The notes below the pieces were generated by a model. It was not told the DNA's origin. It made no database searches and saw nothing but the letters and a program-made list of their open reading frames with translations. A stretch of DNA of 52,985 bases, taken from a virus (lineage: Duplodnaviria > Caudoviricetes). Positions within the stretch are counted from its first letter, which is position 1. The number at the start of each line of letters is the position of its first letter. The stretch is from positions 1-52,985 of the IMG/VR virus record IMGVR_UViG_3300036790_000826. One strand, written 5' to 3'. The position numbers were made by a program, and so were the translations under genes. Shown one piece after another: positions 12,322 through 51,925 of this stretch.

Positions 12322-12360
12322 CTTGTTGAGACTGTTGACAGTCTTGTTGCCACTATTGAC
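12322..12360. repeat. Tandem imperfect 18-bp direct repeat; candidate integrase arm-type sites
   Basis: CTTGTTGAGACTGTTGAC (12322-12339) vs CTTGTTGCCACTATTGAC (12343-12360): 15/18 identical, 21-bp period. Confidence 0.5.
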
Positions 12361-12388
12361 CTCGTAGTCTCCATCAAATCTATAAACT

Positions 12389-12394
12389 ATTGAT
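12389..12394. repeat. Left copy of the junction duplication (ATTGAT; TTGA if the ends are TG...CA)
   Basis: Identical ATTGAT at 51825-51830. Confidence 0.75.
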
Positions 12395-12419
12395 GAGGTT
12401 TCCCATGGGGTTTAAGAAT
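12394..12419 (+). repeat. Left-end transposase-binding site L1
   Basis: TGAGGTTTCCCATGGGGTTTAAGAAT aligns without gaps to the reverse complement of 51800-51825 (TGTAAATTCCCGTTCGCTTTAGGAAT). Confidence 0.8.
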
Positions 12420-12526
12420 CAGTGGAAATAGGGCTCATCAGCTCGAATGAGCACGAAGCCCAACGACTTATAAAATCACCGCCGCGCAGGACGTCCGATG
12501 AGAATGAATCGTCCAAAATCGGCCAG

Positions 12527-12546
12527 ATTCCCAAACGTTTAGGAAT
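12527..12546 (+). repeat. Left-end transposase-binding site L2
   Basis: ATTCCCAAACGTTTAGGAAT, same consensus, about 107 bp inside L1 (spaced left sites as in Mu). Confidence 0.7.
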
Positions 12547-12585
12547 GGCACTGACCTACGAGTGGATTGGAAAACAGGTGTCATT

Positions 12586-13164
12586 TTAGAAGAGCTGCGG
12601 CTGGTCTGCAGAACCCTTTTTCTCCGCCTGCAGGCGCTTTAAACGGGCCTGTTTCTCTCGAAGGGTCTCAGCCTTCGCCTGGGCCACTTCCCCCGTCCTC
12701 TGGGCCATCAGCTCGGGCAGCGTCGGTCCCAGGGCTTTGCCGATCAGGGCCATGGCCTGGCTAACATGGGATCCGGCCCTGAGCGCCTGGTCCCGGATCT
12801 CCTCGGAATTGACCCCCACGTAGCGGTCGACGACGGCCTGGAAATACGGCCAGAAGTCGCGGACCTTATCGGCGCGTTGCTGGGCGCCGAGCGTCGAGAT
12901 GGCCATAATGATATGCGTGGCCAGGGCCTCCCCGTCCAGAAACCAGCCGCGGCGCCAAAGCGCCAGGACCATGCGCTCAAGATAGATCCGGCATTGCTCT
13001 ACGCGGCGGTCCTTCGTGTCGCCTGCCCAGGCCCAATCGAGGCGCTCCGACAGCTGCTTCCGGACCCAGCGGTCGAACCTGATCAGCCGCTCCTCCGGCC
13101 TCTGGCTGCGATCCAGCCAGCTCTCTCGCTTCCAATCGTCCAGACGCCTGCCGAGGAGGTTCAT
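12586..13164 (-). CDS. Hypothetical phage protein (start MNLLGR)
   Basis: ATGA-coupled to the upstream gene; last gene of the early operon; ends in a QPQLF clamp-binding-like motif. Confidence 0.7.
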   Translation of the reverse strand: MNLLGRRLDDWKRESWLDRSQRPEERLIRFDRWVRKQLSERLDWAWAGDTKDRRVEQCRIYLERMVLALWRRGWFLDGEALATHIIMAISTLGAQQRADKVRDFWPYFQAVVDRYVGVNSEEIRDQALRAGSHVSQAMALIGKALGPTLPELMAQRTGEVAQAKAETLREKQARLKRLQAEKKGSADQPQLF

Positions 13165-13535
13165 AGCGAAAGGGTCGGCTGGTCGGTCGGCTGGGGTGCC
13201 AGCCGGGTGTAACGGTGATACCGACGGCGGAGGGCCAGGCCCTGCTGCAGATACTTCTTTCCGGCGCTTTCCCACCGGCTGGCGCAGGCGTCGACCTCGG
13301 CAATCTCGCACGAACTGCTGAGTAGCTTGTAGCCTGGGGATCCGGGCGACCGCATGATGCGCCCGTCGCTGGCCTCGGCGATCGCAGCCAGGCGCCGAAT
13401 ATGGAGGCGGTTCTCCTGGGCGATGAACTCCCGCTTCACCCAGCCGCGGCCGACAAGGAAACGGCAAATCTTGTCGATCTCCTCTTCAGTGACCGGGGCC
13501 CCAGCCATTTCGAGAAACTCGACTTGCTCGTTCAT
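13161..13535 (-). CDS. Hypothetical winged-helix-like protein
   Basis: WVKREFIA...IRRLAAIAE...I..SPGSPGYKL pattern; operon spacing. Confidence 0.6.
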   Translation of the reverse strand: MNEQVEFLEMAGAPVTEEEIDKICRFLVGRGWVKREFIAQENRLHIRRLAAIAEASDGRIMRSPGSPGYKLLSSSCEIAEVDACASRWESAGKKYLQQGLALRRRYHRYTRLAPQPTDQPTLSL

Positions 13536-13537
13536 GG

Positions 13538-13765
13538 TCAGATCGGCTCGGTGATGTAGACCCGGCGGTCGGAGCGAGTCGGGCGCGCCTGCGTTGTGGC
13601 CGTAAATAAGACAAACTCACCTTCCGGGTGGAGACGCTGCAGCCTGAGCAGCTCCGTCTCGGCTTCATCCTGGTAGCAATGGACGAACGACGGCCTCCGG
13701 AGCGCAGGGACCTTCTGACCGTTGAAGTGGTAGACGTTCTGGGAAATATCGACGATCAGGAACAT
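13538..13765 (-). CDS. Hypothetical phage protein
   Basis: TGATG coupling with the upstream gene; AETELLRLQRLHPEGEFVLF motif. Confidence 0.65.
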   Translation of the reverse strand: MFLIVDISQNVYHFNGQKVPALRRPSFVHCYQDEAETELLRLQRLHPEGEFVLFTATTQARPTRSDRRVYITEPI

Positions 13766-14262
13766 CAGAACGGATTCGGGCTCGCCGCCCGGTCTTTGAA
13801 TTTGCCGAGCATCGTGGCGCGGCGGATTTGAGCCAGCCTGGCAAACAAGATCCCCCGGAGCTGGGTAAGCTGCGCCTCGTCGAGCTCCTGGTAGGTCATC
13901 ACCCGGAACACCCGCTTTGCGAGGCCGTTCAGGTAGGCATTCTCGTTGCCCGGCCGGTCGACGATTCCAGTGACGACCTCTCGGACGTTCGCGATCAGGG
14001 CTTGCTTGCGCATAGCCGGCTGCTCCTCGGCCCGGAGCTGGGCCTCCAGGTTGCCTCCATCGTGGACCGCCCGGAAGGTTGCGAGGATCTTGTCCAGGTC
14101 AGGGTTTGTGAAGTCCTTGCTCGACTTCGAATGTCCCAGGGCGCGCTCGTGCAGAGCGTGGCGCATGTCGTCGGTCTGGGACGCGCTCTTACCATGGGCG
14201 CGATACCAGTCGCGGGTCAGAGCCCACTCACGCCAGTAAAGGCCGGTCTGGGCGGCATTCAT
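13765..14262 (-). CDS. Hypothetical protein, possibly GemA/gp16-like
   Basis: HSKSSKDFTNPDLDKIL and LDEAQLTQL patterns and position in a Mu-like early region. Confidence 0.5.
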   Translation of the reverse strand: MNAAQTGLYWREWALTRDWYRAHGKSASQTDDMRHALHERALGHSKSSKDFTNPDLDKILATFRAVHDGGNLEAQLRAEEQPAMRKQALIANVREVVTGIVDRPGNENAYLNGLAKRVFRVMTYQELDEAQLTQLRGILFARLAQIRRATMLGKFKDRAASPNPF

Positions 14263-14534
14263 GCAGCAGCCTTTTTCGCAAAGGGCCGGCGGGAGAAGTG
14301 CAGGCAGGCCGGGGCGTTGGGTTTGATATAGCTGCCCGGCCTATCCCAAACACGGGCCGCACGCTCGCACTTGTAGCCCTCCTCGCCGGGGTTGGTGATC
14401 TTGATGCAGCTCAGGCACTGGACGCAGCGCGACTTCTTCGGGCCTGTGCCGGGCCTAGCTGCGTAGCCGATCTTCCGGAGGCGAGGCTGCTGCGCCTCCG
14501 GAAGTGGCGAACCGAATAGATCCCTCGCAACCAT
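14259..14534 (-). CDS. Small Cys-rich hypothetical protein
   Basis: GYAARPGTGP..CxxC..C...C pattern; coupled to the next gene. Confidence 0.65.
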   Translation of the reverse strand: MVARDLFGSPLPEAQQPRLRKIGYAARPGTGPKKSRCVQCLSCIKITNPGEEGYKCERAARVWDRPGSYIKPNAPACLHFSRRPFAKKAAA

Positions 14535-14540
14535 GGAGGG

Positions 14541-15338
<798 letters not shown>

Positions 15339-15347
15339 TGGTCGATT

Positions 15348-15773
15348 TCAGCTCTGTTTCAGGACTTTAACGGTGACCTCGATCACGCCGGTCCTGGGGT
15401 CGGCGAGGATCAAGAAAGCATGCGCGGACAGGTCGAGTAGGCGTCCCCGGCTGACGAGGTCGAAGCGGGGGCCCCTGTCGGTGACGGTCACGACGACCTT
15501 GCGGTCGCCGCGTGTGACCAGGAGGCGGGTGCCAAGCGCGTATTCCCAGCTGGCGCAGGTGAGCGCATCCGGGTTGAAGGGGCGCCCGTTCGCCATCAGG
15601 CGGCCGCGGCATTCGTTGCCGTACCAGCTCGCCAGGCACCAGCGGCCGACGCGGTCGGCGATGGCGTCAGTGACCATGCAGACGGCCGTGACGGGCACGA
15701 GGAGGGCCGCCGCGGCCGCCACGGTGGCAATAAGGAAAAGAGCTAAGAGACCAGTCTGGAGCCAGGTCTTCAC
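15348..15773 (-). CDS. RlpA-like (DPBB) lytic transglycosylase with N-terminal hydrophobic segment
   Basis: ASWYG...MANG..F.P.ALTCA...LGT...VVVTVTDRGP...R.LDLS..AF signature; GTG start at 15773 overlaps the upstream stop. Confidence 0.85.
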   Translation of the reverse strand: MKTWLQTGLLALFLIATVAAAAALLVPVTAVCMVTDAIADRVGRWCLASWYGNECRGRLMANGRPFNPDALTCASWEYALGTRLLVTRGDRKVVVTVTDRGPRFDLVSRGRLLDLSAHAFLILADPRTGVIEVTVKVLKQS

Positions 15774-16048
15774 TGATCGAGGACGGGCTGAATCTTCCGT
15801 TCGTGGCGGATGATCATGGCGTGGACCAGGGCCGCAGTGCCCCGGAAGAGCGCCTGGTATTGATAGGGCACCGGGATCCCGAGCCAGCAGCGGCCGGCGG
15901 GACGGTATTCGCCTCTGATGGTCTTCCTGGCCGTTACCTGGGCCGTCCGCGGGCAGATCTCGACCTCCCAGTCCGGATGGGCGTGGCGCAGCCGCTTGAC
16001 GGCTGCGCCGACGTCCAGGGCCGGGAGTTCTAGCGCGGCGGTCGTCAT
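15770..16048 (-). CDS. Hypothetical phage protein
   Basis: ATGA/GTGA coupling on both sides. Confidence 0.65.
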   Translation of the reverse strand: MTTAALELPALDVGAAVKRLRHAHPDWEVEICPRTAQVTARKTIRGEYRPAGRCWLGIPVPYQYQALFRGTAALVHAMIIRHERKIQPVLDQ

Positions 16049-16590
16049 TTATGGGCCGTGGCTGTGTCCTTCGGCTCGATGAAGAAGCTCTCCTCCTGGG
16101 CAACCCTGCAGCCGAGTTCCGACAGCGCGGCACTGCTGAGGCTGCCGGGCTTGGCGGCTGGCATGGTGGCGGCCGCGATCAGCTTCGCCTTGTCGACCTC
16201 CTCCTTCGTGCGGATGAACCTCGTCATGGCCCTGTCGGCCTTCAGGGCGACGAGCACCTTCGCCCAGGTCTTCTTCGACAGCGTCTTCAGCGCGGGCATT
16301 CCCAGGCGGAAGCCGTAGGTCGCCAGCGCCGTGGTCGCCGACTTGGCCTTGTCGGGGAGTAGCTCCTCCCGGTGCTCGGTAGCGTACTGCTCAGCGAGGA
16401 TCCTCAGGGCCTTTATCGACGCCACGATCGCGCGGGCCCCTTCGTCGTGGTTTTCGCGGACCCGCTGGAGCTCGGCGTCGCGCAGCGCCTCCCAGCTCTG
16501 AAGGTCGTTCGATTGGACGCAAATCTGATCGATGACACGCTCGAAGTCCGTCCGCGTTGTGAGGCACCCGTCTTTGATTCGTTTGCTCAT
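16045..16590 (-). CDS. gam: Mu Gam-like host-nuclease inhibitor
   Basis: YATEHREEL...KS...YGFRLG.P...FIRTKEEVDK..L...G.RVAQEESFFIEP Gam signature; downstream of the MuB-like gene. Confidence 0.85.
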   Translation of the reverse strand: MSKRIKDGCLTTRTDFERVIDQICVQSNDLQSWEALRDAELQRVRENHDEGARAIVASIKALRILAEQYATEHREELLPDKAKSATTALATYGFRLGMPALKTLSKKTWAKVLVALKADRAMTRFIRTKEEVDKAKLIAAATMPAAKPGSLSSAALSELGCRVAQEESFFIEPKDTATAHK

Positions 16591-16593
16591 GGC

Positions 16594-17124
16594 TCAGGCG
16601 TGGACGAGCGGACGGGGGCGGAACGTACGGACCGAGGCCCGACCGGCCTTTGCAGTCACTTCAGCGAAGTCCTCGATCATCAGTCGGTCTTCCGGCCTCG
16701 GACCCATCTTGAGGCCGATGCTCTCGCCGAAGGTCTTTGTGCCATCCGGCCCGAAGGAGACGAATCCGGCCGCGACCGGCAGGTCGCCCATCTTCGAGAA
16801 CGCTTGGGCGATCTCGAAATGCGTAGCTGGGTCGATCGTGAAGAAGTATCGCTCGACGCCGCTCTTGGAGCGCATCGCTACATACCGCAGCGCGTACTCT
16901 GGCGGCCGAGCCAGGTCGACGAACACTTGGAGGGCACGATAGCCGTTGTTTTCCGCGACCTTCGTCGCAGCTTCCCTCGTGGCGTAATTGCCCAGGGGCT
17001 CTTTATCAGCCGGCGTCTGGACGCTATATCCTCCGCGCTCGTTTTGCGCGACGGTCGCGGTTTCCGGCTCGGTCGAGGGGCTTGCGGCCCCGAATAGCTT
17101 ACTGATGAACGCTGGCAGTTTCAT
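16594..17124 (-). CDS. Hypothetical phage protein (start MKLPAF)
   Basis: ATGA-coupled start at 17124; C-terminal AAGFV...TFGESIGL..GPRPED motif. Confidence 0.65.
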   Translation of the reverse strand: MKLPAFISKLFGAASPSTEPETATVAQNERGGYSVQTPADKEPLGNYATREAATKVAENNGYRALQVFVDLARPPEYALRYVAMRSKSGVERYFFTIDPATHFEIAQAFSKMGDLPVAAGFVSFGPDGTKTFGESIGLKMGPRPEDRLMIEDFAEVTAKAGRASVRTFRPRPLVHA

Positions 17125-17375
17125 GTGAATGCTCCTTCCGCTGTGATCTGGTTGCCGTCTGGGGTTACAATTTTGACGATGTCCAAGGGGTGCTCGCCTC
17201 CGTCCTCGCGCCAGTGGCCGTCGCCGGTCCATAGCTCGTGGGCCTCCAGCGGATGGCAGAACGCCGCCTTGAGCCGGCGGAAGCCCTGCACGCGGAATCC
17301 ATCGAGCTTGATGCGGCCGGTGACGGCCGCGGGATCGCCGTTTCGCAGGACCACTGGCGTGGGTTTGAGGCTCAT
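17121..17375 (-). CDS. Hypothetical phage protein
   Basis: LRNG...WTGDG.W....HPLDIV small phage-protein pattern; coupled. Confidence 0.65.
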   Translation of the reverse strand: MSLKPTPVVLRNGDPAAVTGRIKLDGFRVQGFRRLKAAFCHPLEAHELWTGDGHWREDGGEHPLDIVKIVTPDGNQITAEGAFT

Positions 17376-17608
17376 GACCTGGCGAGCGGCCGTGCCGACG
17401 CATTGTAGATCCTGTAGCCGCTGCCGGCGTTGACGTGCCTGAGTACCACCCGCCGCTGAGCGCAGTGGAAGTACTTAGCCGCGGCGGCGAGGGCCGCGTA
17501 GATATAGTCGTTGGTGCTGCTGGCTGTCCGGGCACCCCTCCCGGCTCCTATGCGGGCCATGTGGGTGCCACCCTTATCAACGACGCGGACTGTGGCAGAG
17601 GTCTTCAC
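17372..17608 (-). CDS. Hypothetical phage protein
   Basis: Fills the operon gap between the MuB-like gene and the next ORF, with ATGA coupling. Confidence 0.6.
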   Translation of the reverse strand: MKTSATVRVVDKGGTHMARIGAGRGARTASSTNDYIYAALAAAAKYFHCAQRRVVLRHVNAGSGYRIYNASARPLARS

Positions 17609-17616
17609 GGCGCCCT

Positions 17617-18711
17617 TTACTTCGCCGCGTGCTGGATCTCGCCCATGGCCTGCTTGCGAAGCGCCAGGGACTTGAAAAAATCGTCCTCCAGCATTCCGCG
17701 CTTGGAGGCGCTCGCGATCTTGCTGGCGACTTCGAGCAACTTCCCGAGTGTCCGGAGCCGGCCGCCGGCCTCGTCGTTTACCAGGGCGAAAGCGGCGTTC
17801 TGCAGGGTCGCTGTCGGCTTCGGGAAATACTGCTGCAGTATGGGCAGCACGTCCGCGTTCTCGATGTGCCGGTAGAGACGCACTGGCAGGCCCACGCGGC
17901 CGAGGACCTGCTCGAACTGGTACTTGAGCTTCTTCAGCGTGTCATCGAACCGCTGGGTGGCAATCAGCCCGACGCCGCACTTCGTCTTGTCGTGGATGTA
18001 TCGGATGATCTCCAGCTTGACCGGGTTGATGTCGCGCCGGGTGTCGCCCGGCAGGAGGCGGTGGGCCTCGTCCAGTATAAGGATCCGGTTCGAGTTAAAA
18101 GACCGCAGGAGGGCCTCCAGCTGCATGTCCTGGCTACCGTTGACGTTGTGCCCGCAGCCCCTGCAGAGCGCGCGAAGGAGGGTCTTGGCACCCCCTATCG
18201 GCGGGATCTCCACGAGGACGCTCCTGCCGTGGTTGTTGGCGTCGCGCCAGGCTGTCGTCGAGATCGTCTTGCCCTGGCCGGACTCGCCGACGATGAGGGT
18301 GATCGAGTTGTTGGCTAGCGCGTAGTCCAGGCCCGAGAAGATCAGGTCGCTGATCGAATTCCTGGCGAACTTGCCGCGCTGGATCCCGATGCGGTTCGTG
18401 ACGACCCGCTTGTAGCTGTTGATCGACTTGACGATGTTCTGGTAGTTGCCCTCGTAGGTGCCCTTGAGCACGCGGTAGACCGTCGTGTTGTTGTAGTTGA
18501 TGGCCTTCCCCGCGTCCTTGTAGTTGAGGCCCTCGTCGAGGATGTGCTGGTGGAACCAGAGCAGCGCCTCGGAGATGGCGGGATCAAGGTGCCGCCAGTT
18601 TTCAAGGTTGAGCGGTATATTGATCCTCGCGGCCGCCGAAGCGGCGCGCGCCTTGTCGGAGGCGTCGACCTCGGACTCTATATCATTGACGGGTTCCTCT
18701 GTGGTGTTCAT
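17617..18711 (-). CDS. MuB-like transposition AAA+ ATPase
   Basis: N-terminal HTH, Walker A GESGQGKT and Walker B ILILDEAHRL; follows the transposase. Confidence 0.9.
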   Translation of the reverse strand: MNTTEEPVNDIESEVDASDKARAASAAARINIPLNLENWRHLDPAISEALLWFHQHILDEGLNYKDAGKAINYNNTTVYRVLKGTYEGNYQNIVKSINSYKRVVTNRIGIQRGKFARNSISDLIFSGLDYALANNSITLIVGESGQGKTISTTAWRDANNHGRSVLVEIPPIGGAKTLLRALCRGCGHNVNGSQDMQLEALLRSFNSNRILILDEAHRLLPGDTRRDINPVKLEIIRYIHDKTKCGVGLIATQRFDDTLKKLKYQFEQVLGRVGLPVRLYRHIENADVLPILQQYFPKPTATLQNAAFALVNDEAGGRLRTLGKLLEVASKIASASKRGMLEDDFFKSLALRKQAMGEIQHAAK

Positions 18712-18741
18712 GCGTGTGTCTCCTCTGTTTGTTGTCTATTG

Positions 18742-18778
18742 GGCCCCGGCCGTTTGCGCGGCCGGGGTCTTGTTTTTG
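18742..18778 (+). terminator. GC-rich hairpin with T-tract on the + strand (antisense to the early operon)
   Basis: GGCCCCGGCCG-TTTGCG-CGGCCGGGGTC followed by TTGTTTTT. Confidence 0.5.
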
Positions 18779-18787
18779 GTGGAAATG

Positions 18788-21004: not shown

Positions 21005-21011
21005 GGAGGCT

Positions 21012-21410
21012 TTAAGTTGAGGATTGAGCCGGGCTGGGCGGATTCGCAGGATCCGCCGATGTGGCCGTGGAAACGCGGGATTGACCCAGAGCTCGCCGCG
21101 CTGCGGGAACGTGTAGCGGTGCTGGAAGCGCTGCTAAAATCTCAGGGAGAGAATCTCGGATTGCTGAACCGTCAGCTCCAAGCAGCCCAGGCTCGCTTTG
21201 AAGAGACGCGCGGAATTGCGCTAGAGAGAGGACTTTACCAGACTGACATTCTAGTGCGGCTCGCAGAGCGCCTCGGAGTTCACACAGGTGATCGGCCGCC
21301 TGACGCCAACCGCGCAGATCCCGGCATTCCTCCTGCGTCTGCATCAGGAGCAGATAGGCCAGTTCCAGGCGCGCGCGGCTGAGCGCAGCGAAAGGGAGCG
21401 GAGCGCTCAT
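21012..21410 (-). CDS. Hypothetical protein (start MSAPLP)
   Basis: ATGA-coupled to the DUF3102-like gene; ends 7 nt before the transposase start. Confidence 0.5.
   Translation of the reverse strand: MSAPLPFAALSRARLELAYLLLMQTQEECRDLRGWRQAADHLCELRGALRAALECQSGKVLSLAQFRASLQSEPGLLGADGSAIRDSLPEILAALPAPLHVPAARRALGQSRVSTATSADPANPPSPAQSST
21059..21382 (+). CDS. Possible antisense coiled-coil protein (107 aa, MWPWKR...)
   Basis: Heptad pattern LAALRERVAVLEALL...; AGGA upstream of the ATG; fully overlaps the minus-strand ORF. Confidence 0.35.
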   Translation: MWPWKRGIDPELAALRERVAVLEALLKSQGENLGLLNRQLQAAQARFEETRGIALERGLYQTDILVRLAERLGVHTGDRPPDANRADPGIPPASASGADRPVPGARG

Positions 21411-40551: not shown

Positions 40552-40562
40552 CGGCCGATTCC

Positions 40563-41095: not shown

Positions 41096-41101
41096 TTTAC
41101 C

Positions 41102-41551: not shown

Positions 41552-41555
41552 CGCC

Positions 41556-41990: not shown

Positions 41991-42157
41991 CCCACAGCCC
42001 CAAGGACATCCAACGGTACATCTTCGAGCGAGACCGCTACCATGCACGGCGCCAGCTGGAGCTCATGGAAAGCTGCCTCCTCGGGATGGTCGGCGGAGAC
42101 GACTACAACGCGGCCGCGACAAAGCTAATCGAGATCATCGATGCCGAGCCTGGTTGA
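41786..42157 (+). CDS. gpGT-like -1 frameshift extension
   Basis: The -1 frame is open from heptamer A AAT TTT (41786-41792) to 42157. Confidence 0.5.
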   Translation, partial: KFSLGPRHRDARSGDGPEMWDVDPGDSDIIRTFDELCAYARRCVDRWEGDAWRACASGFCAGDQSKVLTHSPKDIQRYIFERDRYHARRQLELMESCLLGMVGGDDYNAAATKLIEIIDAEPG

Positions 42158-45100: not shown

Positions 45101-45188
45101 CAAGGCTGTCTTCATGCGCGCCATCGCGCCGGACGTTGAGGCGATCGCGCACACCGTCTCCATGAAGAACATTCGGCAAAACGCCTGA
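42141..45188 (+). CDS. Tail tape measure protein (1015 aa)
   Basis: Long helical Ala-rich protein with LSRRTG.S...L..L.QAF motif; between the chaperone and tail-tip genes. Confidence 0.9.
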   Translation: MPSLVELIISAVGAEEAGAAVQGISAKVKELASSLSGGGLKSTTDFSEKLEDVSGVMRDMVSPALSDTTKQLLGLAAASLSVGAVYNSVKDQISQGSDFVQLSRRTGESVRDLVILRQAFTNAGLGAEYVGTAANLLDRVLSGTTASGRRTSEVFEELHLSIDKMRTLTFTQQLQELGSAFARLPDQAARSGAAMTLFGRYAGGQMLQLLADTDAFRRAEAQAGSYADRMARDAGVFNDVALRFNAIKVNIQEMAAAAAEQLVPALDSVAKVAGGINLAGLGSFAGAAAPGILGTVALTIATDQADMKMVQLAERFGQNVEGSLLGGVMGAASKVTGLLATALPFGLAAVIGAEIVKGILMADWQNTMDKIDAAGSGADTLTKKARDIRTDDDRQAVLAMAQKELASQVQAQADATKVPMFSGPGVVPGMDPRATAGEGNSLLADSYGATISQLKTLINELASPKWAKMTEEQNQATDALAKFRTGIDAAATSLPQLREKNDQLQEKDMSPTDRVADLTAQRTQLYYQRAAPPQKGASADEIATVDQQTDNKILDLTHQIQEAEKQVTEEKKKQAELDAHRQIYALQTNMERAKAAGDLEGAQALKEQIDAIRNSVELQGEDLTLAKQRAAAEHQVFEEQQAQIAQRKAAEAARQALEVQRTALENELEAIRSRLALLDSDTSKTEAQKWADRKAAIAEEIKDVEATIQAEQLLAQAAAAKGDQVAANQYSAEAAKNGEKLSGLQHENVQLGPDPNNWVKQTQKSMNDLLKSLGTTSQQIAQSITSTIGNAFNSIRENIVRAITVTGDWKRAISQIGLSIEQSLVGAFVNMAVQWAEKLVIMKVEWLAMRLGMAAADKGVAASSTAALVPLALATSAIWAAPAALATIATFGGAAAAAPMEIAASMAASQGLALASSGGFFPGDPTKARGIFHGDEFVLSAPAVRNLGGGAAVTALHQAALQGPAQAAAAKAMTGGGRTPNIHTYIDKAVFMRAIAPDVEAIAHTVSMKNIRQNA

Positions 45189-45191
45189 GCC

Positions 45192-47282
45192 ATGATCCCA
45201 GTCGTCGCACTCGGCCAGGACGCCTGGCTCGTGCCCTACAGCCCGAACACCGACGACGCCTGCACGGTGAAGGCGCGGGTCGCCATCCAGGCATCGAGGA
45301 GCCTCACGGCGCGCCAGTCGCGCAGGCCGACGGCGCGGCTCCTGCGCTACCGGATCAGCTGGACGAGCAAGATGCGCCGGGGTGACTACGCCGCGGCCCG
45401 CATCGCGGCCCTCAATTCCCAGGACGAGCCGATCCTGACCCCCTTCTGGCCCGCTGCCAGGCCGGTGGCCGCGGCGGCCGCCATGACGGGCGGCGTCGTG
45501 ATCGCGTGGACGCGGGGCTGGACCGGCTGGGCCATCAGCCCCGTCAGCCTAGTGGGTTTCGACTACTATGCTCCGCTTCTCTGGGGGCGCTTCTCCCAGC
45601 CGCCGAGGATCACCGCGCAGACCAACGAATACGTGACGGCGGAATTCTCGGTGGACGAGGACTCGGGCAGCGCGGCCGCCATCACGCCGCCGGCCGGCGC
45701 CGACACGACCTTTGCGACGCCGGACGGCTACGCGGCCGCCATCTACCCCTACAAGTTCGACCCGGCGGACAACATCAAGCTGGCGCTGCCTGGCTACGAC
45801 GTCAGCCGCACCCAGCTGGGGGCGGGGCGCCAGGAGTCGACGACCTTCTATCCGCAGATCCCTGAAGACACCCTTCAGGTGGCCTACAAGTTCCGCTGCA
45901 GCGCCGATGCAATCGAGCTCCTAAGCTGGTGGCAGCGGCGAGCCGGGGGAGCGGACGCCTTCTGGATACCGTCGACGCAGAGCATCGGGCGCCTGAGCGC
46001 AGACATCGCGGCCGGGATCACGGTCCTCCCGTCGACGTGCGCCATCAATACGCGGGTGGGAGACACCCTCGCGCTCTGCACGACGGGGCAGGCCATGGAG
46101 CTGGGGCGGGTAAATTCGATAGCCGGCGGGACGGTGAAGCTCGCCGCGGCGACCACGGCCGCGCACCCGGCCGCGTGGACGAGCATCTGCCCGGCGGTCC
46201 TCGTTCGCCACACGGACGACGAACTGCAGGTGGACTTCCGGCGCACCTCCGAGGGCGACTGGACGGCGAGCGGCAAAGTCTCATTCCGGGAGGTCGGCGC
46301 CGAGTACACCGTCCCGACGGACGGCGAGACACGCGGCGTCACGATGGGGCGCCAGCCGACCCTCGCCTGGTTCGCACGGGTCGACCTCAATTACCCCGGC
46401 TCAGTCCAGAGCTGGTTTCTGACCGACTGGGAAGGGGGCGCAACGACCCCTGACGCCCAGGTCTGGGAGTACTCGGATTTCGATTTCGGGCAGATCGGCC
46501 AGAACATCAACGGCGACGATGACGCGGCCACGTTCAAGGTGCGCTGGTGGGACGGTTGTCCCTGGGTTAATTGGCTCCCTGGGCAGCTTTCGGCGACGGG
46601 CACGCTCACGGTCCTCAAGGCGACGGTCGCTGCCGACGGCACGGTGGGCGAGCCGGAGCAGGTCTGGTCCGGCCAGCTCTCCACGCCCTCTCCCGAGGGC
46701 GCCATGCTTTCCGTGAAGGTGCTCGGGGCAAACGCGCTGTTTGATCAGAACGCTCCCCAGCAGCTGCAGATCCCGCAATGCTACAAGAAACTCTACGGGG
46801 TGCGCTGCGCGCTCACTCTAGCCAACTGGCAGTTTAGCGCGAAGGTCGGCTCTATCGCCGGCCTAAGCGTCGTCATCAACACGATCGCTGCCTTAGGCTC
46901 ATGCGCACCTGCTGTCATGGTGGGCGGCCTTCCCGCGGGCTTCGGCTTCCAGGACTGGTTCACCCTCGGCTACGTCGAATGGACGAGCGGCGGGAACACG
47001 CTCAGTTCCGAGATCATCGCGTCATCGGCGCTCGCAGGAGGCGCCATCACTCTGACGCTCCAGCGCCCGGTCACCTTTGTGGCGGGTGCCACCATCACCG
47101 TGGTCCCTGGATGCGACCGCACGCGCAGCACCTGTGACGGGTACGACGCTGCGACGAACCCGACAGGAAAATTCAACAACAACCGCGGGAGCACGCTCAA
47201 GTTCGGGGGCTTCGCCGACATGCCGGCGATCAGCCCCAGCTTCATCATCCCGCAGACGACGACAACCCCCGCCAAGAAATGA
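45192..47282 (+). CDS. Tail tip/hub protein with C-terminal BR0599/DUF2163-like domain
   Basis: C...LYG.RC, WFTLG.VEW, VVPGCDRT.STC...KFNN...FGGF..MP Cys motif; long N-terminal region. Confidence 0.75.
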   Translation: MIPVVALGQDAWLVPYSPNTDDACTVKARVAIQASRSLTARQSRRPTARLLRYRISWTSKMRRGDYAAARIAALNSQDEPILTPFWPAARPVAAAAAMTGGVVIAWTRGWTGWAISPVSLVGFDYYAPLLWGRFSQPPRITAQTNEYVTAEFSVDEDSGSAAAITPPAGADTTFATPDGYAAAIYPYKFDPADNIKLALPGYDVSRTQLGAGRQESTTFYPQIPEDTLQVAYKFRCSADAIELLSWWQRRAGGADAFWIPSTQSIGRLSADIAAGITVLPSTCAINTRVGDTLALCTTGQAMELGRVNSIAGGTVKLAAATTAAHPAAWTSICPAVLVRHTDDELQVDFRRTSEGDWTASGKVSFREVGAEYTVPTDGETRGVTMGRQPTLAWFARVDLNYPGSVQSWFLTDWEGGATTPDAQVWEYSDFDFGQIGQNINGDDDAATFKVRWWDGCPWVNWLPGQLSATGTLTVLKATVAADGTVGEPEQVWSGQLSTPSPEGAMLSVKVLGANALFDQNAPQQLQIPQCYKKLYGVRCALTLANWQFSAKVGSIAGLSVVINTIAALGSCAPAVMVGGLPAGFGFQDWFTLGYVEWTSGGNTLSSEIIASSALAGGAITLTLQRPVTFVAGATITVVPGCDRTRSTCDGYDAATNPTGKFNNNRGSTLKFGGFADMPAISPSFIIPQTTTTPAKK

Positions 47283-47722
47283 TCACTGCAGCCCAGCTCG
47301 ACGCCCTTGACGCCGCCGCCGCCTCGTGGAGGGGGACGCCCTTCTGCGAGGGATCGCCCGTCAGGGGCGCCGGCATCTCCTGCAGCCATCTCGTGGCCGA
47401 GGTTCTCTTCGAGGCCGGCCTCACCCCCCGGATCCCGGTCCCGGACGGCCCGTCGTCTTCTTCGGCGATCCTTTCATCGGAAAGCCTGATCGCGAAATTC
47501 ATCGATGGCACGGGTCTCTTTGTCCGCATGGACGGCTTCCCCCAGGGCGGCGACGTGCTGGGCTTCAGGGTCGGCAATGCCGTCCACCACGCGGCCGTCA
47601 TGCTGCGCGGCGGCCGCCTCGTCCACAGCATCCGCAACCATGGGGTCTGCGTGGCACCGCTCATCCCGGCCGAGTGGGCGCGCCGCATCGAAATCGTCTG
47701 GCGCCTCAAAAGCGTACTATGA
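47279..47722 (+). CDS. NlpC/P60 tail-associated peptidase
   Basis: SWRGTPF...GAGISCSHLV...GDVLGF...HHAAV...VHS. Confidence 0.85.
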   Translation: MITAAQLDALDAAAASWRGTPFCEGSPVRGAGISCSHLVAEVLFEAGLTPRIPVPDGPSSSSAILSSESLIAKFIDGTGLFVRMDGFPQGGDVLGFRVGNAVHHAAVMLRGGRLVHSIRNHGVCVAPLIPAEWARRIEIVWRLKSVL

Positions 47723-47904
47723 GCGAGCCCAACAATACGCAGCCGGTCAGCCTTCTGCCCTTCCAGCAGGAGAACGTCGCCTCGAACCAGCAAAACGTCC
47801 CGATCCCGTACCTCGGGGGAGAGCGCCTCATGGCCCTTAAGTGGATCCAGCCGGCCCTCGGTGAAATGACCCAGCAGGCCACGGGCTCTGGGAAAAAAGG
47901 CTAA
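47719..47904 (+). CDS. Small tail-tip assembly protein (61 aa)
   Basis: ASNQQNVPIPYLGGE motif; coupled on both sides; ends GSGKKG. Confidence 0.6.
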   Translation: MSEPNNTQPVSLLPFQQENVASNQQNVPIPYLGGERLMALKWIQPALGEMTQQATGSGKKG

Positions 47905-50900
47905 TGGGCAGCAGCAGCAAAAGCGGGTCCGCCCAGCAGAGCCTCAACTACTACGGCACGATCGCGGGCGCCTTCTGCTGGGGGCCGTTGCAGTGGCTGA
48001 CGGCCGTCGTCTGCAACGGGAACTACGTCTGGCAGTGCTCGCCGTCCGGTCCCCTCGATTTGACGGCTTCAGGGGCTCTGGAGGCCGGCGGCTACGTGGA
48101 CCTGACGGGCGGCATCCTGGATCCCACGCTTATCGCCTCGGGCGGCTTTCTGCATCTCTACGCCGGCTTCCCCAACCAGGGCGCGAGTGCGGCCCTGACC
48201 GGCGATGCCTACCAGGACACCGTTGTCCTGGTCGGCAAGGACATCTTCTTCGGGGAGGATTCGGGCACCGCGCCCAACTTCCAGATCATCGGCGGCCGCT
48301 GCCCGCAGGTGGACACCTCGATCGTCGCGGCCCTGGACAACATCGTCGTCGACCGACAGGTCAATCCGATCGCCTGCCTGGCTGAATTCTTCCTCGATGA
48401 GCGAGGCAAGGGAATGCTGCTCTCCCAGCTGGACCCCGCGAGCTGGCAGGCCTCCGCCCACTGGTGCGCCCAGGACGCCGCTCACCAGGCATTCACATTC
48501 ATCTCGCCCCTCATCACGGAGCAGAGCGCCTTGCGCGACGTCCGCAAGGCCCTCCTGGATCCCATCTCGGGCTACACGCGCTGGCTGCCGAACGGCACGC
48601 TGGGGTGTTTCATTTACGAGTGGGGCACCAATCCCGGCGGCCTCGTGACGGTTGACGCCAGGCACTTCACAAAGGAGCTGAAGGGTGACCTGGCTGACTG
48701 GGTGTCCGTCCCGACAGGCATCGTGGCCTCGTTCACGGACCGGGCCTACGAGTTCCAGACAAACACGGTGCTGGTCCCCAACGAACGGGCGACCCAGATC
48801 CGCGGCGTCGCGGATCCCAGCCAGATCGACCGCCAGCACGTCACAAAGCAGCCCCAGGCGCAGGCTCAGGCCATGGAATACATGAGGCGCCTGTCGATGG
48901 GCCCGGGGACCGCCACGGGTGTTATTCGGGGCTCGCTGATCCCTGGCGTCGTGCCGGGCTCAAAGATCCTCATCAACGTCGACCCGCAGACAGGGGGCGG
49001 CGGCCTGGCGCAGCTGGCCCGGATCGACGGCATGAAGATCGATCGCTCCGACGACGTGGAGCTGGACATCACCTACGACCCGCTGCTCCCCGCGGTAGCC
49101 TATACGCCCGACTGGCCCTCCCCGCTGCCGGAGACGACCTTCCATGCCTCGTCGGCGCCCACGCTGGTCTACCGGCTCGCGATTCCGCTGCCGCCTGGAG
49201 CATTCGACTGGCCCCCGGCGGTGGGCTTCCTGGCGACGAGGCCCTCGATGACGGTGACGGGTTTCAGCGTCTATTTCTCCCAGACGTCGGGAGGCGCCTT
49301 TGCCGAGCTGGGCTCGCAGCTCGGTTTCGCTGTCCGGGCCTCACTGATCACGGCCGTGGGGACCGGCGACGCGACGATGGAGCTGCAGATGCTGGACGGC
49401 GCGAACGGTCCGGACGCCTATCTCGCCGCCAACACCCCCGGCGGCAACACGACGGCCGCCGAAAACAACACCCTCCTGGCGATCCTGGTACAGCTCGACG
49501 GCTCGGGCAGGGTCGCCCTGGACGGAAGCGGCAACCCGATCATGGAGATGGCCTCCATCGTCCAGCGGTCCGCCGTCACGGCCGACACCCACAACTACAC
49601 GGTCCTGCGCGGCCGCTGTGGCCTAGCTGCGCGGGCCTGGGGAGCAGCGACCGCTGCCTGGATAGTCCCGATCGCGAATCTGACGCCCTGGAGGCATTTG
49701 CTCTTCGCAGCCCTGGAAGGGGCGCCTGCGTATTTCAGGCTGCAGGCATTCACTTCCGCCGCCGTCGACGAGACGATCCCGTTGCCCGAGGCCGACGTCG
49801 TGTTCCCGACCCTTGCGCCGCCCACGGCGCTCACAGCCATCACCCCGGGGGGACAGCTGGTAACGCTTGCCTGGGCAGACAGCGTCAACCTGGACGACGG
49901 CCTTGACGAGTATGTCGTCTACCGGGCAACGGCAGGCGCCGGCGGCCCCTTTACCGAGATCGGCCGCACCAGGTCGACGGCCTTCCACGATACCGGGCAG
50001 ACAGGTGGCCTCGTGATAGGCACGCAGTACTGGTACGCCGTCACTGCCCTGGACCTTTCGGACGACGAAAGCGTCCAGTCGAACATCGTCACGGCCACGC
50101 CGACCGGGGTCGCAGCCAACCAGACCCCTCCGCAGAACGCCGGAGCAGCATCGGAGGCGGACGGGGGACATACCATCGTCGCCAGCGACGGGAGCGTCTC
50201 GGCGTCGCTGGACATCCTGGTCCCGGCTCTCCCGGGCGCCGGCGCCGGAACACTGGCCGCCGCCTGGCAAAACCTCCTTTTCAGACGCAACGGGGTTTCG
50301 AGCCAATGGCAGATCGGATCCGGGAATCTTAACAATACCGGCACCGTGACGGTTTCCTTGGACCTCCTGTCCCCCGGCGTGGCCTATGACGTCGCACTGC
50401 AGGCATTCACGAGCTTCGGCATCCCCTCGGCGATAGTAGTCGCGACCAGCTCACCTTTCACAGCGCCCAGCAAGGGCACCTCGGCGCCAGCGCCGGGCGC
50501 CATTAGTTCGCGGGTGCCGACGACGGGCGACGCTGTTCCGCCGGCATTTGAGGGTAGTCAGCTGGTTCCAGCCACGATCATCACGTTTGCCGGCGTCACC
50601 TCGGACAGGAGCCTCATCGGCTACGAATACTACCTGGGTGAGCTGTCTGGGCCGCCAACCACCGGACAGGCCATCAACCCGGTCAATGTCGTTCCAGCCA
50701 CCCCGGACGGAGGCACGGTCGAGATCCCCGTTTATGGGCAGCCTTCGCTTCTCAGCTTGGCTGGATGGGTGCGTACAATCGACAGCACTGGCAACACGAG
50801 CACCTGGACGGGTACGGGCGGCGCCATGGCCTGGACGTTCGGCTACGCGGGCAACATGGGCGCCCAGGATTCAGACGGGGTCGAGGTCAGCGCAGTCCAA

Positions 50901-51209
50901 ACGGGTGCGGCAGGGGCCAGCTCCGTGCGTCAGATCCTCGCCAGTTGCCCCGTCGACATGGTCTACGTCACGACTGGAGGTCATCCGACCGAGACGTTCA
51001 ACGTCGACATCAGCAACCGGGGATTCACCACCGCGCCGGACAACTGCCAGATCACCCCCACGTCGCCGACCCTCGGGAACTCCTGGTATTACGACAAGAG
51101 CTCCTCCACCTCGACGACCGCTGTGATCGTCATGCAAGGCTTCAACGGCGCCAACATCGGCGTCGCCCAGGACTACGGCATCAGCTTCCTCTTCACCGAA
51201 TACGACTAA
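47904..51209 (+). CDS. Central tail tip/host-specificity protein with an FN3-like domain
   Basis: YYGTIA...C.GP, VNPIACL and VLRGRCG patterns; VTLAW...YVVYRA...YWYAVTALD..DES FN3 signature. Confidence 0.8.
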   Translation: MGSSSKSGSAQQSLNYYGTIAGAFCWGPLQWLTAVVCNGNYVWQCSPSGPLDLTASGALEAGGYVDLTGGILDPTLIASGGFLHLYAGFPNQGASAALTGDAYQDTVVLVGKDIFFGEDSGTAPNFQIIGGRCPQVDTSIVAALDNIVVDRQVNPIACLAEFFLDERGKGMLLSQLDPASWQASAHWCAQDAAHQAFTFISPLITEQSALRDVRKALLDPISGYTRWLPNGTLGCFIYEWGTNPGGLVTVDARHFTKELKGDLADWVSVPTGIVASFTDRAYEFQTNTVLVPNERATQIRGVADPSQIDRQHVTKQPQAQAQAMEYMRRLSMGPGTATGVIRGSLIPGVVPGSKILINVDPQTGGGGLAQLARIDGMKIDRSDDVELDITYDPLLPAVAYTPDWPSPLPETTFHASSAPTLVYRLAIPLPPGAFDWPPAVGFLATRPSMTVTGFSVYFSQTSGGAFAELGSQLGFAVRASLITAVGTGDATMELQMLDGANGPDAYLAANTPGGNTTAAENNTLLAILVQLDGSGRVALDGSGNPIMEMASIVQRSAVTADTHNYTVLRGRCGLAARAWGAATAAWIVPIANLTPWRHLLFAALEGAPAYFRLQAFTSAAVDETIPLPEADVVFPTLAPPTALTAITPGGQLVTLAWADSVNLDDGLDEYVVYRATAGAGGPFTEIGRTRSTAFHDTGQTGGLVIGTQYWYAVTALDLSDDESVQSNIVTATPTGVAANQTPPQNAGAASEADGGHTIVASDGSVSASLDILVPALPGAGAGTLAAAWQNLLFRRNGVSSQWQIGSGNLNNTGTVTVSLDLLSPGVAYDVALQAFTSFGIPSAIVVATSSPFTAPSKGTSAPAPGAISSRVPTTGDAVPPAFEGSQLVPATIITFAGVTSDRSLIGYEYYLGELSGPPTTGQAINPVNVVPATPDGGTVEIPVYGQPSLLSLAGWVRTIDSTGNTSTWTGTGGAMAWTFGYAGNMGAQDSDGVEVSAVQTGAAGASSVRQILASCPVDMVYVTTGGHPTETFNVDISNRGFTTAPDNCQITPTSPTLGNSWYYDKSSSTSTTAVIVMQGFNGANIGVAQDYGISFLFTEYD

Positions 51210-51214
51210 CCGCC

Positions 51215-51565
51215 ATGGCCCTCCAAAAGACTATCGACCTGCCCAACGGCACCTCAGGCAACTATATCAAGATCGTGGCCTATCGTTGGGACACGCTCAC
51301 CGAAACCGCCTCCGCGCTGTTTGCGCTCTACCTTAGCCAGGCGCAGCGTACCGCTGCTCCCAAGAGCACCCTTATGCCAGTGGTCGCCAAACTCCGGCTG
51401 CACGGGGCTAAGTTCAACCAATACCTCGCGAATTCGGTTCTCGACCCGCCCAATGTGACCGTCCTCGGTCAGCTCTATGCCGCTGCCAAGGTCGAGCCGC
51501 TGAAGTCGGACTTTCAGCCCACATCCGGCTCTGCGACGGTCTTGTCCGATGCCACAAACGTCTGA
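51215..51565 (+). CDS. Tail-fibre-associated small protein (start MALQKT)
   Basis: MALQKTI...G....YIKI...QLYAAAK pattern typical after fibre genes. Confidence 0.65.
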   Translation: MALQKTIDLPNGTSGNYIKIVAYRWDTLTETASALFALYLSQAQRTAAPKSTLMPVVAKLRLHGAKFNQYLANSVLDPPNVTVLGQLYAAAKVEPLKSDFQPTSGSATVLSDATNV

Positions 51566-51576
51566 GGTCGACCTTC

Positions 51577-51786
51577 GTGACCCGTCCGCAGCAACCCCCG
51601 CATTTCAGCTGTTACGGCGGAAGCCTCCAAGGTCGGCCGCTGTTGCTCATCGATGAGCGGGCCTACGAGGACACCATTGTCGAGCTTTGGAGGCTGAAAA
51701 TGGCCGTTTCTGAGGCCCTGCAACCGGCTCTTCCACCCCCTGCAAGGCGCCTGTCTCGGCTCCTCGTTTCAGCGCCTGATTCTTAA
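51577..51786 (+). CDS. Hypothetical protein (69 aa) at the right end
   Basis: GTG start; stop falls inside end site R2. Confidence 0.3.
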   Translation: MTRPQQPPHFSCYGGSLQGRPLLLIDERAYEDTIVELWRLKMAVSEALQPALPPPARRLSRLLVSAPDS

Positions 51787-51825
51787 AGGTGTGGGAATTA
51801 TTCCTAAAGCGAACGGGAATTTACA
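51779..51825 (-). repeat. Right-end transposase-binding sites R2 (51779-51798) and R1 (51800-51825)
   Basis: Reverse complement reads TGTAAATTCCCGTTCGCTTTAGGAAT-A-ATTCCCACACCTTTAAGAAT; TTTAAGAATCAG is shared exactly with L1. Confidence 0.8.
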
Positions 51826-51830
51826 TTGAT
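51825..51830. repeat. Right copy of the junction duplication (ATTGAT/TTGA)
   Basis: Matches 12389-12394. Confidence 0.75.
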
Positions 51831-51851
51831 AACCATATTTTTGTAATATGA

Positions 51852-51925
51852 TGGACGCCGAGGGATTCGAACCCCCGACCCCCTCGGTGTAAACGAGGTG
51901 CTCTAACCAACTGAGCTAGGCGTCC
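51852..51925 (-). tRNA. trnV: tRNA-Val(TAC)
   Basis: GGACGCC acceptor stem, TAGCTCAGTTGGTTAGAGC D arm, CCTCG-TTTACAC-CGAGG anticodon arm and GGTTCGAATCC T arm; followed by TCA rather than CCA. Confidence 0.96.

Follow-up and report, generated by a model that had tools for sequence, protein, structure and literature searches.

A Mu-like prophage inside the att region of an older integrative element, and an apparent preference of its family for tRNA gene ends

The window (the whole stretch of 52,985 nucleotides analysed here) carries a transposable, Mu-like prophage of 39,432 bp (12394..51825) that lies between part of an older integrative element (126..12393) and a tRNA-Val gene. PHROG and Pfam profiles recognise a transposase, a MuB-like ATPase, GemA, terminase, portal, protease and tape measure among the prophage genes, of which the early ones are encoded on the minus strand and the structural ones on the plus strand. 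By these matches and its termini, the 39.4-kb insert is identified as a transposable phage. The predicted MuA-like transposase (18788..21004, minus strand, 738 amino acids) aligns with phrog_310 over residues 35-696 (E 4.5e-23) and gave no match to Pfam at E ≤ 0.01 or to PDB sequences. Contig C26 of the metagenome-assembled genome (MAG) G332 encodes a 100% identical copy, and relatives are found in 31 of 401 Opitutaceae genomes. The neighbouring gene (17617..18711, minus strand) encodes a MuB-like transposition ATPase of the AAA_22/TniB type (phrog_296, E 1.8e-36; PF13401, 2e-13; PF05621, 2.9e-6). The last gene before the left phage end (12586..13164, minus strand, the start coordinate being deduced from the 192-residue database form) encodes a conserved, all-helical protein of 192 amino acids that terminates in Q-x-x-L-F. 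It has 59 homologues, none of them named, and is represented in 18 of 21 related prophage pieces; its model (pLDDT 78) matched nothing in the PDB at E ≤ 0.001 and offered no structural lead.

The phage begins with TG at 12394 and ends with CA at 51825, and its terminal inverted repeat is imperfect (17 of 26 positions in a hand count of the two end sequences). The closest relative, in genome G067, has the same end sequences. The termini are bounded by two copies of the target duplication TTGA, at 12390..12393 and 51826..51829. As the hexamer ATTGAT is present at either junction (12389-12394 and 51825-51830), the reconstructed empty site is unaffected by the duplication length that is assumed. 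The length itself was settled as 4 bp with the help of relatives: the window prophage and 12 others combine TG...CA inverted-repeat termini with a short duplication that is always 4 bp and differs in sequence in 13 of 13 cases. The empty site was not recovered from the contigs of three runs or from scans of the collection, and the reconstruction is therefore based on the duplication and the relatives. The phage contig has a depth of 34.8, and the contig spanning the element and the left phage end has a depth of 27.2, a difference that is not interpretable with contigs from three runs.

The older element, with a GC content of 0.50-0.57 from about 3 kb to 12.4 kb, encodes a tape-measure-like ORF (99-2681, minus), an HTH protein (3018-3632, minus), a Rep-like protein (3639-4388, minus), a PIN-like protein (5275-5763, plus), an HNH/PtuB-like protein (6123-6767, minus), a receiver domain (6768-7403, minus), a restriction-like protein with a kinase ATPase (7400-9751, minus), a methyltransferase (9739-11115, minus) and a DUF4145 protein (11377-12183, minus). 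The sequence-only reading of this locus had called the element a satellite, a label for which we found no hallmark: it carries the Rep-like, HTH, PIN, tape-measure-like and defence-like genes listed above, and in the incomplete portion within the window the satellite-type matches are weak (phrog_57, small-terminase-like, 1.9e-7 on the HTH protein; 1.5e-7 for the Rep-like protein). At the left edge, the end of a repeat, probably an IS (1..125), cuts the 3′ end of the tape-measure-like ORF at an assembly fork. The start of the window shares 141 bases with the end of contig C25 of the same MAG before the two diverge, and in run X1 a 1,406-base contig at depth 65 joins flanks of depth 27. The element carries many IS copies.

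On the other side of the phage, ARAGORN places tRNA-Val(tac) at 51852..51925 on the minus strand, where it forms the attL core of the older element. The distance from the tRNA end to the phage end at 51825 is 26 nt, as the earlier reading had it, and the insertion lies 23 nt past the CCA position. This gap is made up of a core-proximal piece of the P′ arm (51830..51851, minus strand) and the right TTGA copy. Beyond the far end of the phage lie two 21-bp repeats (12322..12363, minus strand), agreeing at 15 of 21 positions, which we identify as the integrase sites of arm type in the P′ arm; read in the tRNA sense, they contain AGTGGCAAC and its variant AGTCTCAAC.

The suggestion that the phage had split the att site of another element called for an integrase and a duplicate of the tRNA-Val 3′ end beyond the window. 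Both are present, the integrase as an N-terminal part, on a separate contig of the same MAG, G332:C22, which is tied to the window solely by this common membership and by shared motifs. Positions 856-887 of C22 repeat 32 nt of the tRNA-Val 3′ end with two mismatches (E 4.9e-7 in a 3.8-Mb genome), and 85 nt from this repeat lies an integrase gene (183-770, minus strand) with SAM-like domains (PF13102, 6.1e-8; PF02899, 1.8e-6) that also matches XerC/XerD models. The N-terminal ~190 residues are present; the gene is cut by the end of an IS21-family element at C22:200, and a search of the MAG did not recover the catalytic domain. The motif AGTGGCAAC occurs at C22 positions 759 and 771, beside the integrase start, and once in the window, at 12346, as against zero occurrences in 60 kb from three other contig ends. 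Among 47 loci with relatives of the integrase, the closest 15 examined have the same tandem motif between the integrase start and a tRNA fragment, and the variant AGTCTCAAC recurs in L199. This recurrence marks AGTGGCAAC as a conserved arm site of the integrase family. The genes of C22 were not found downstream of tRNA-Val in any of 80 asd loci of relatives searched with blastn and tblastn.

The tRNA itself bears a trace of the same event. In relatives, tRNA-Val reads GTTCGAGTCCC in 66 of 67 cases, followed by CCA in 62 of 67, whereas the window tRNA-Val has an A in the T-loop and ends in TCA; the copy on C22 has the relatives' letters, G and CCA. By this comparison, the 3′ part of the window tRNA-Val is element-derived. 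These observations support the view that the phage has landed within the att region of a different integrative element, with the core on one side and the arm-type repeats on the other. As the arm motif lies in the 21-bp repeats of the window, the phage separates the attL core from the P′ arm sites. On this evidence, an older tyrosine-integrase element, either a decaying prophage or an island, entered the 3′ end of tRNA-Val, swapping the 3′ part of the gene for its own copy and displacing the original 3′ end to its far side. The position of the phage between core and P′ arm implies that it came later, putting 39.4 kb between the two with a 4-bp duplication. The split attL would presumably no longer support excision, a loss of little consequence since the integrase is already cut by the IS21-family element in the assembly.

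Joining the flanks creates a single perfect match to the IHF consensus, WATCAANNNNTTR, across the junction and beside the two 21-bp repeats, as the sequence-only reading had noticed; its left-flank portion is 12381..12393 (minus strand) and the remainder lies to the right of the phage. The intact window has no match (0.28 expected from shuffles). A rough estimate puts the chance of a match at ~0.02 anywhere in an AT-rich stretch of ~100 nt and at ~0.002 across the joint, with no correction for having chosen the motif post hoc. The match also falls between core and arm sites, as in the lambda layout. It might therefore be proposed that the phage prefers IHF-bent DNA and struck the att arm at its IHF site, an idea also raised in the earlier reading. 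None of the 11 other related-phage targets, however, has such a motif, even with one mismatch allowed. Furthermore, the consensus was derived from E. coli, whereas the host belongs to the Opitutaceae, and the two HU/IHF-family proteins of the host MAG score 65.8 and 51.7 bits against an NCBIfam IHF cut-off of 111 each. We consider this explanation very improbable: in all likelihood the match is a coincidence or a genuine bending site in the att arm, and it is not supported as the attractant.

The tabulated insertion sites of related prophages point to a different cue. Both ends could be mapped for 13 Opitutaceae prophages, that of the window included, and each has an exact 4-bp duplication; six more loci were mapped at one end (G392, G229, G116, G095, G341, G013) and three at neither (G009, G133, G228). 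Among the 13, 11 lie 11-29 nt downstream of the 3′ end of a tRNA or tRNA fragment, in either orientation, although the nine loci not mapped at both ends make the true fraction at tRNAs uncertain. Ten adjoin complete tRNA genes (Val, Tyr, Ser-gga four times, Ser-tga twice, Ser-cga and Pro), one (G300c1) adjoins a tRNA 3′ fragment, and G107 and G272 have no tRNA nearby. The one-end-mapped G392 lies 24 nt from a tRNA-Ser fragment. The end that faces the complete tRNA is the right one in seven cases and the left one in three; the fragments are faced by the left end in G300c1 and by the right end in G392. Genome G300 holds two copies of the prophage, identical in the end sequences compared and in the coordinates of their gene matches, at two tRNA-type sites. 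These positions suggest that the family targets the ends of tRNA genes and does not insert at random. The preference for tRNA-adjacent DNA put forward in the sequence-only reading is thereby strongly supported, while its premise of almost random insertion is not supported for this phage.

Transposable prophages are described as randomly integrated in excerpts of two reports (PMC8705779, PMC10367356), and sites behind tRNA genes are harmless, so that the tRNA-adjacent prophages might be the survivors of random insertion or, in the window, the product of selection for disarming the older element. The 30-nt windows behind ~50 tRNA genes, however, amount by our estimate to ~0.04% of a 4-Mb genome, compared to the 11 of 13 observed, and of 12 tRNA genes that ARAGORN found in ~640 kb of flanks, nine are at mapped phage ends and one is at a tentative end. 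With regard to disarming, the window insertion alone splits an att arm, those of G300c1 and G392 being on the chromosomal side of the tRNA fragment, and the integrase is already cut by an IS. The collision is accounted for by the use of tRNA 3′ ends by both phage and element, which leaves the proposal of selection unsupported. Random insertion followed by either kind of selection is thus a highly unlikely explanation.

The targets have a sequence in common. An exact T-arm box, GGTTCGAATCC, is present in 12 of 12 tRNA-type targets (the 11 mapped at both ends and G392), as compared to 73 of 282 T-box-like sites of the form GGTTCRANTCC (26%) in five of the target genomes; as the targets are mostly tRNA-Ser and the phages are related, the 12 matches are not independent. 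Alternatively, the cue may be structural, namely the first (terminator) hairpin that follows a strongly transcribed gene for a small RNA, with tRNA genes as its commonest carriers and the T-arm box as a passenger. Mu transpososomes bend their target strongly and favour deformable DNA. DNA folding puts the 4-bp duplication within a long and mostly perfect stem, or at its margin, in G131, G012, G300c2, G170 and G272; in the window, G112, G177 and G300c1, a hairpin is found within ~10 nt of it. The folds cover the insertion sites alone. The insertion in G272, which has no tRNA, is at a hairpin apex. Terminators should nevertheless far outnumber the ~50 located behind tRNA genes, yet tRNA-type ends account for 11 of 13 insertions; two targets (G300c1 and G392) are tRNA fragments and not genes; and the box is exact in every tRNA-type target. 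A purely structural cue is therefore unlikely, if less so than the two explanations above.

Considered as a whole, the account of an older element at tRNA-Val, a later Mu-like phage and tRNA-end targeting by way of the T-arm box is probably correct. Within this account, the transposition machinery (transposase, ATPase or another phage protein) would read GGTTCGAATCC, or the box together with the hairpin after the tRNA, and insert the phage 25-43 bp to the 3′ side of the box. A bolder version, which we would put at somewhat below an even chance, is that a clade of Opitutaceae Mu-like phages has evolved tRNA homing by reading the box on dsDNA, with insertion at this distance in either orientation. 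In the window, the substitute tRNA end brought by the element would have turned the local tRNA-Val box from GGTTCGAGTCC into GGTTCGAATCC, and may in this way have created the landing site and invited the phage that split the element's att. A possible basis for reading the box is its likeness to the subterminal transposase sites of the phages themselves (GGTTTAAGAATC in the window prophage; GGTTTGAAAATC in those of G112, G177 and G055). No TniQ/TnsD-like protein was found among 21 phage ORFs, and the gaps of 11-29 nt together with the use of both orientations argue against a rigid Tn7-type selector. As several insertions are in or beside a hairpin, structure and not the box could be the cue.

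The window prophage resembles Mu, D3112, B3 and BcepMu in having a predicted DDE transposase with an AAA+ partner, GemA, a short target duplication, a genome of ~39 kb and TG...CA termini with subterminal repeats. In BcepMu, the early region is inverted relative to the structural genes, as it is here. Unlike in Mu-type phages, the transposase has no Pfam or PDB sequence match and integration is non-random. The duplication of 4 bp in the window family differs from the 5 bp of Mu and the 6 bp of B3 given in an excerpt of PMC8705779. An excerpt of PMC10367356 describes transposable phages of Porphyromonas gingivalis, which form a candidate family with the Bacteroides Hankyphage, as having conserved termini and 4-bp bounding repeats; by this description alone they are like the window family, but they are said there to integrate non-specifically. 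The literature that we searched yielded no tRNA-directed Mu-like phage.

Parallels in target choice come from other mobile elements. Ty3, Ty1 and the Dictyostelium TRE elements use many different tRNA genes as safe harbours, according to excerpts of PMC5006619 and PMC5911963, and so does the window family; those elements, however, read the RNA polymerase III machinery, which bacteria do not have, and two of the targets described here are tRNA fragments. Tn7 and Tn7-like elements with TnsD/TniQ selectors and CRISPR-associated transposons combine a DDE transposase with an AAA+ adaptor, as is predicted for the window prophage, and use a harmless site tens of base pairs past a conserved gene end. 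Some of them home behind tRNA genes. The window family differs from Tn7-like elements in the lack of a recognised TniQ/TnsD-like protein, its variable distance, its two orientations and its many tRNAs. The older element, for its part, conforms to lambda-type tRNA att sites: its core occupies the 3′ end of the tRNA, whose original end now stands as a displaced direct repeat; both arms bear arm-type sites, which are in tandem beside the start of the integrase gene; and a match to the IHF consensus is located between core and P′ arm sites. It departs from them in its integrase, truncated in the assembly, in its load of IS copies and in its splitting by a phage, and its IHF site is a candidate named from the consensus.

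In the textbooks, near-random integration is exemplified by transposable phages. A family that homes to tRNA genes, if confirmed, would mean that safe-harbour targeting, known from Tn7-like elements and yeast retrotransposons, is within reach of a Mu-type machine, and this without any recognisable selector of the TniQ type. How Mu-type transposition chooses its targets would become testable with simple substrates that differ in one box or one base. Prophage boundaries in this phylum could then be recognised by a rule: conserved ends (TGAGG... and ...TACA), 4-bp repeats and a flanking tRNA. Furthermore, as the same tRNA ends are used by both, tRNA homing would account for the collisions of these prophages with att sites that belong to integrase-driven islands, and such collisions can lock the islands in place.

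The transposable phage occupies positions 12394–51825 of the window, as delimited by phage gene matches and by its mapped ends. Its transposase matches phrog_310 (E 4.5e-23) and its MuB-like ATPase matches phrog_296 (E 1.8e-36) as well as AAA_22 and TniB, and the other phage genes encode GemA, an HTH repressor, a large terminase, a portal, a protease and a tape measure protein. The termini (TG... and ...CA) form an imperfect inverted repeat with agreement at 17 of 26 positions, counted by eye, and the same terminal sequences are found in the closest genomic relative, a prophage of genome G067 whose transposase is 71% identical. Because the hexamer ATTGAT is present at both phage junctions, the window alone leaves the length of the target duplication open. 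This length was fixed at 4 bp by the G067 prophage (GCCG) and eleven further relatives, and the reconstructed empty site is identical whichever length is assumed.

As a virus record, the window consists of one contig, and at its right end lie asd and tRNA-Val(tac) from an Opitutaceae bacterium; the best relatives of this asd are found in metagenome-assembled genomes (MAGs), at 88–63% identity. A transposase search of 401 Opitutaceae genomes found the window's contig as contig C26 of the MAG G332 (100% identity). A G+C-rich tandem repeat (14631–14841) within the phage ORF 14541–15338 differs in length between the two versions, by about 72 bases according to coordinate offsets, whereas an alignment shows overlapping breakpoints some 57 bases apart in extent; contigs of the metagenome runs also break at this repeat.

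To place this insertion among others, ends were mapped around 21 related prophages using the conserved termini and an exact duplication. Both ends were mapped for 13 prophages including that of the window, all with 4-bp duplications of differing sequence. A complete tRNA gene lies beside ten of them and a tRNA fragment beside one, and no tRNA is found near the remaining two (G107 and G272). The right phage end faces the tRNA in the window, where tRNA-Val is, as the sequence-only reading had it, 26 nt away (23 nt to the would-be CCA end), and likewise at tRNA-Tyr in G067 (23 nt), at tRNA-Ser(gga) in G131, G012 and G112 (16, 17 and 29 nt), at tRNA-Ser(tga) in G177 (14 nt) and at tRNA-Ser(cga) in G170 (28 nt). 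The left end faces tRNA-Ser(tga) in G060 (23 nt), tRNA-Pro in G300c2 (17 nt), tRNA-Ser(gga) in G055 (11 nt) and a tRNA-Ser-like 3′ fragment, uncalled by ARAGORN, in G300c1 (14 nt). The two G300 copies (contigs C1 and C2; loci L151–L154) have identical printed ends and identical gene-hit coordinates, which suggests that the prophage recently transposed to another site of the tRNA type.

The both-end count leaves out G392, whose right end alone was mapped, 24 nt from another tRNA-Ser fragment; the tentative G229; four genomes with one mapped end each and no tRNA on that side (G116, G095, G341 and G013); and three with neither end mapped (G009, G133 and G228). Viral contigs L081–L087 yielded no host flanks. 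ARAGORN called 12 tRNA genes in the retrieved regions, about 640 kb in total; nine adjoin mapped phage ends and one adjoins the tentative end. The near-random insertion assumed in the sequence-only reading is thus at odds with 11 of 13 both-end-mapped prophages lying beside a tRNA gene or tRNA fragment, and the preference for tRNA-adjacent DNA that it had offered as one possibility is strongly supported, as a family-wide placement at tRNA 3′ flanks.

The literature searched contained no tRNA-directed transposable phage. The target duplications of Mu and B3 are given as 5 bp and 6 bp, respectively, in a source that describes such transposable prophages as randomly integrated (PMC8705779). For Porphyromonas gingivalis transposable phages, 4-bp bounding repeats and non-specific integration are reported (PMC10367356).

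The cue for this placement may lie in the tRNA sequence. An exact copy of the T-arm box GGTTCGAATCC is present at all 12 tRNA-type targets, 25–43 nt from the phage end, and GGTTCGAATCC accounts for 73 of 282 GGTTCRANTCC matches in five of the target genomes; given the predominance of Ser tRNAs, the 12 box matches do not count as independent. In this clade the native tRNA-Val carries GGTTCGAGTCC, and the GGTTCGAATCC of the window comes from the older, tyrosine-integrase element to the left of the phage. A structural cue, namely a hairpin following the tRNA, is also in play, as several insertions lie in or next to such a hairpin. The layout of lambda att, the inverted early region of BcepMu, target bending by Mu and the properties of Tn7 form the general background to these comparisons.

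Candidate readers of the cue were sought among the phage proteins. A Pfam search of 21 phage ORFs returned no TniQ-like protein, and the ORF after the ATPase (16594–17535) was set aside as a selector since it is conserved in just 3 of 21 relatives. Beside the left end, a conserved 192-aa protein (12586–13164, minus strand) is predicted to be all-helical, and at E ≤ 0.001 its model (pLDDT 78) matches nothing in the PDB. It ends in Q-x-x-L-F, as do most of the 34 homologues aligned, and this ending resembles a sliding-clamp-binding motif. The idea that the phage carries a guide-like match to the tRNA end was rejected, since the matches are just 10–13 nt long, at chance level. Subterminal repeats, GGTTTAAGAATC in the window phage and GGTTTGAAAATC in G112, G177 and G055, look loosely like the T-arm box and may offer a lead, not a result.

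Attraction by IHF was another explanation put forward in the sequence-only reading, which placed the insertion in an IHF site of another element's att region. One perfect match to the IHF consensus WATCAANNNNTTR does span the rebuilt joint, and the intact window contains no such match where 0.28 would be expected. The motif is absent from the 11 other phage target sites, even when one mismatch is allowed, and both HU/IHF-family proteins of the host (n = 2) fall below the NCBIfam IHF cut-offs, so that attraction by IHF is not borne out. No empty site was recovered. A search for exact copies of 25 nt from the left flank gave no match in metagenome_contigs or viral_contigs, from which the window's own record was perhaps excluded. 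When contigs of runs X1–X3 were compared with window positions 1–20000, no loose end fell at 12393/12394 among those listed; this check used contigs, with 205 further loose ends unlisted, and is uninformative on rare empty sites. The 12393/12394 junction is spanned by a contig of X1, possibly the source run.

The observation made in the sequence-only reading is confirmed, and its view that an att site was split is supported. The attL core of the older element is tRNA-Val(tac) (51852–51925, minus strand), and the start of a probable integrase gene and the duplicate tRNA-Val 3′ end that such a site calls for are both present outside the window, on contig C22 of the same MAG; the link between C22 and the window is drawn from the shared MAG and from shared motifs. 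The tRNA copy is 32 nt long with two mismatches (C22 856–887), and an ORF with integrase SAM-like domains starts 85 nt from it. In the relatives, the T-arm reads GTTCGAGTCCC in 66 of 67 and CCA follows the discriminator in 62 of 67. The C22 fragment has both relative-type letters, whereas at these two places the window tRNA reads A and TCA. These mismatch letters indicate that from the T-loop onward the window tRNA is the element's copy and that C22 holds the displaced original; judged from sequence, the pattern is the one that integration into a tRNA 3′ end yields.

C22 has two copies of the arm-type motif AGTGGCAAC, which overlap the integrase start, and the window has one, oriented likewise with respect to the tRNA; three other contig ends, 60 kb in all, have none. 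The window copy lies within the second of two 21-bp units (12322–12363), which are real and identical at 15 of 21 positions. A metagenome scan provided 47 integrase relatives, and all of the 15 closest, which were inspected, share one layout: integrase start, tandem AGTGGCAAC-type motif, a 70–90-nt spacer and a tRNA 3′ fragment, the fragments deriving from many different tRNAs. In this family (L189–L207) the tandem AGTGGCAAC arm sites have a 12-bp spacing and lie at or just upstream of the integrase's own start codon, and between arm sites and core there is a GATGTTTTAA-like motif that is also conserved. One relative carries the variant AGTCTCAAC, the form found in the first 21-bp unit of the window. 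This conserved arm layout identifies the 21-bp repeats as the pair of P′ arm-type sites. The phage thus sits between the attL core and the P′ arm-type sites, and from this position we infer that it arrived after the older element.

One end of an IS21-family element (L138 17541–20000 plus L131 1–200; L139 end) cuts into the integrase ORF at C22:200. The element's istA, encoding rve and Mu-transposase C-terminal domains, and its istB are located at the C32 contig end, and another copy abuts C45. At least two near-identical ends of this element exist, one in the integrase and the other at an 8-kb low-GC stretch of C45 with PIN, MarR and DUF4379 genes. The catalytic half of the integrase was not found in the MAG: its PF00589 matches belong to unrelated genes, and the flank of the C32 copy is too short.

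To the left of the phage, from about 3 to 12.4 kb, GC falls to 0.50–0.57, and the older element encodes a tape-measure-like ORF, an HTH protein, a Rep-like protein and a PIN-like ORF. A defence-like block beside attL (6123–12183) comprises an HNH protein matching PtuB/PtuA models, a receiver-domain protein, a mad2-like methyltransferase, a DUF4145 protein and a 783-aa protein in which a BbrUII/HgiDII-like (restriction-like) N-terminus is fused to a histidine-kinase ATPase C-terminus. The window itself contains no integrase and no tRNA-end copy of 11 nt or more. Positions 1–125 form a repeat end at an assembly fork, with a 141-base overlap with the end of G332 contig C25 (L130) followed by divergence; the depth in run X1 is 65 for the repeat contig and 27 for its flanks. 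This repeat probably represents an IS, present in two copies, that cuts short the tape-measure-like ORF; a short ORF start reads into it. A contig of X2 tracks the older element to 12267 and diverges beyond, where it may belong to another organism or to an element variant whose P′ arm differs.

Neither the older element's genes nor those of C22 are present in any of 80 asd loci. The stretch behind tRNA-Val is variable in relatives, and 13 ORFs from eight loci there include no tyrosine integrase and one IS-type rve match. Two contigs, those of the closest asd locus (L001, 88% identical) and of L008 (79% identical), terminate inside and just past tRNA-Val, respectively, which suggests mobile DNA at tRNA-Val there too. 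The earlier description of the older element as a satellite, and of the insertion as selected for disarming a parasite, found no support. What is established is the pattern of placement at tRNA flanks, and this family-wide homing to tRNA 3′ flanks is a more interesting outcome than the split of one att site.
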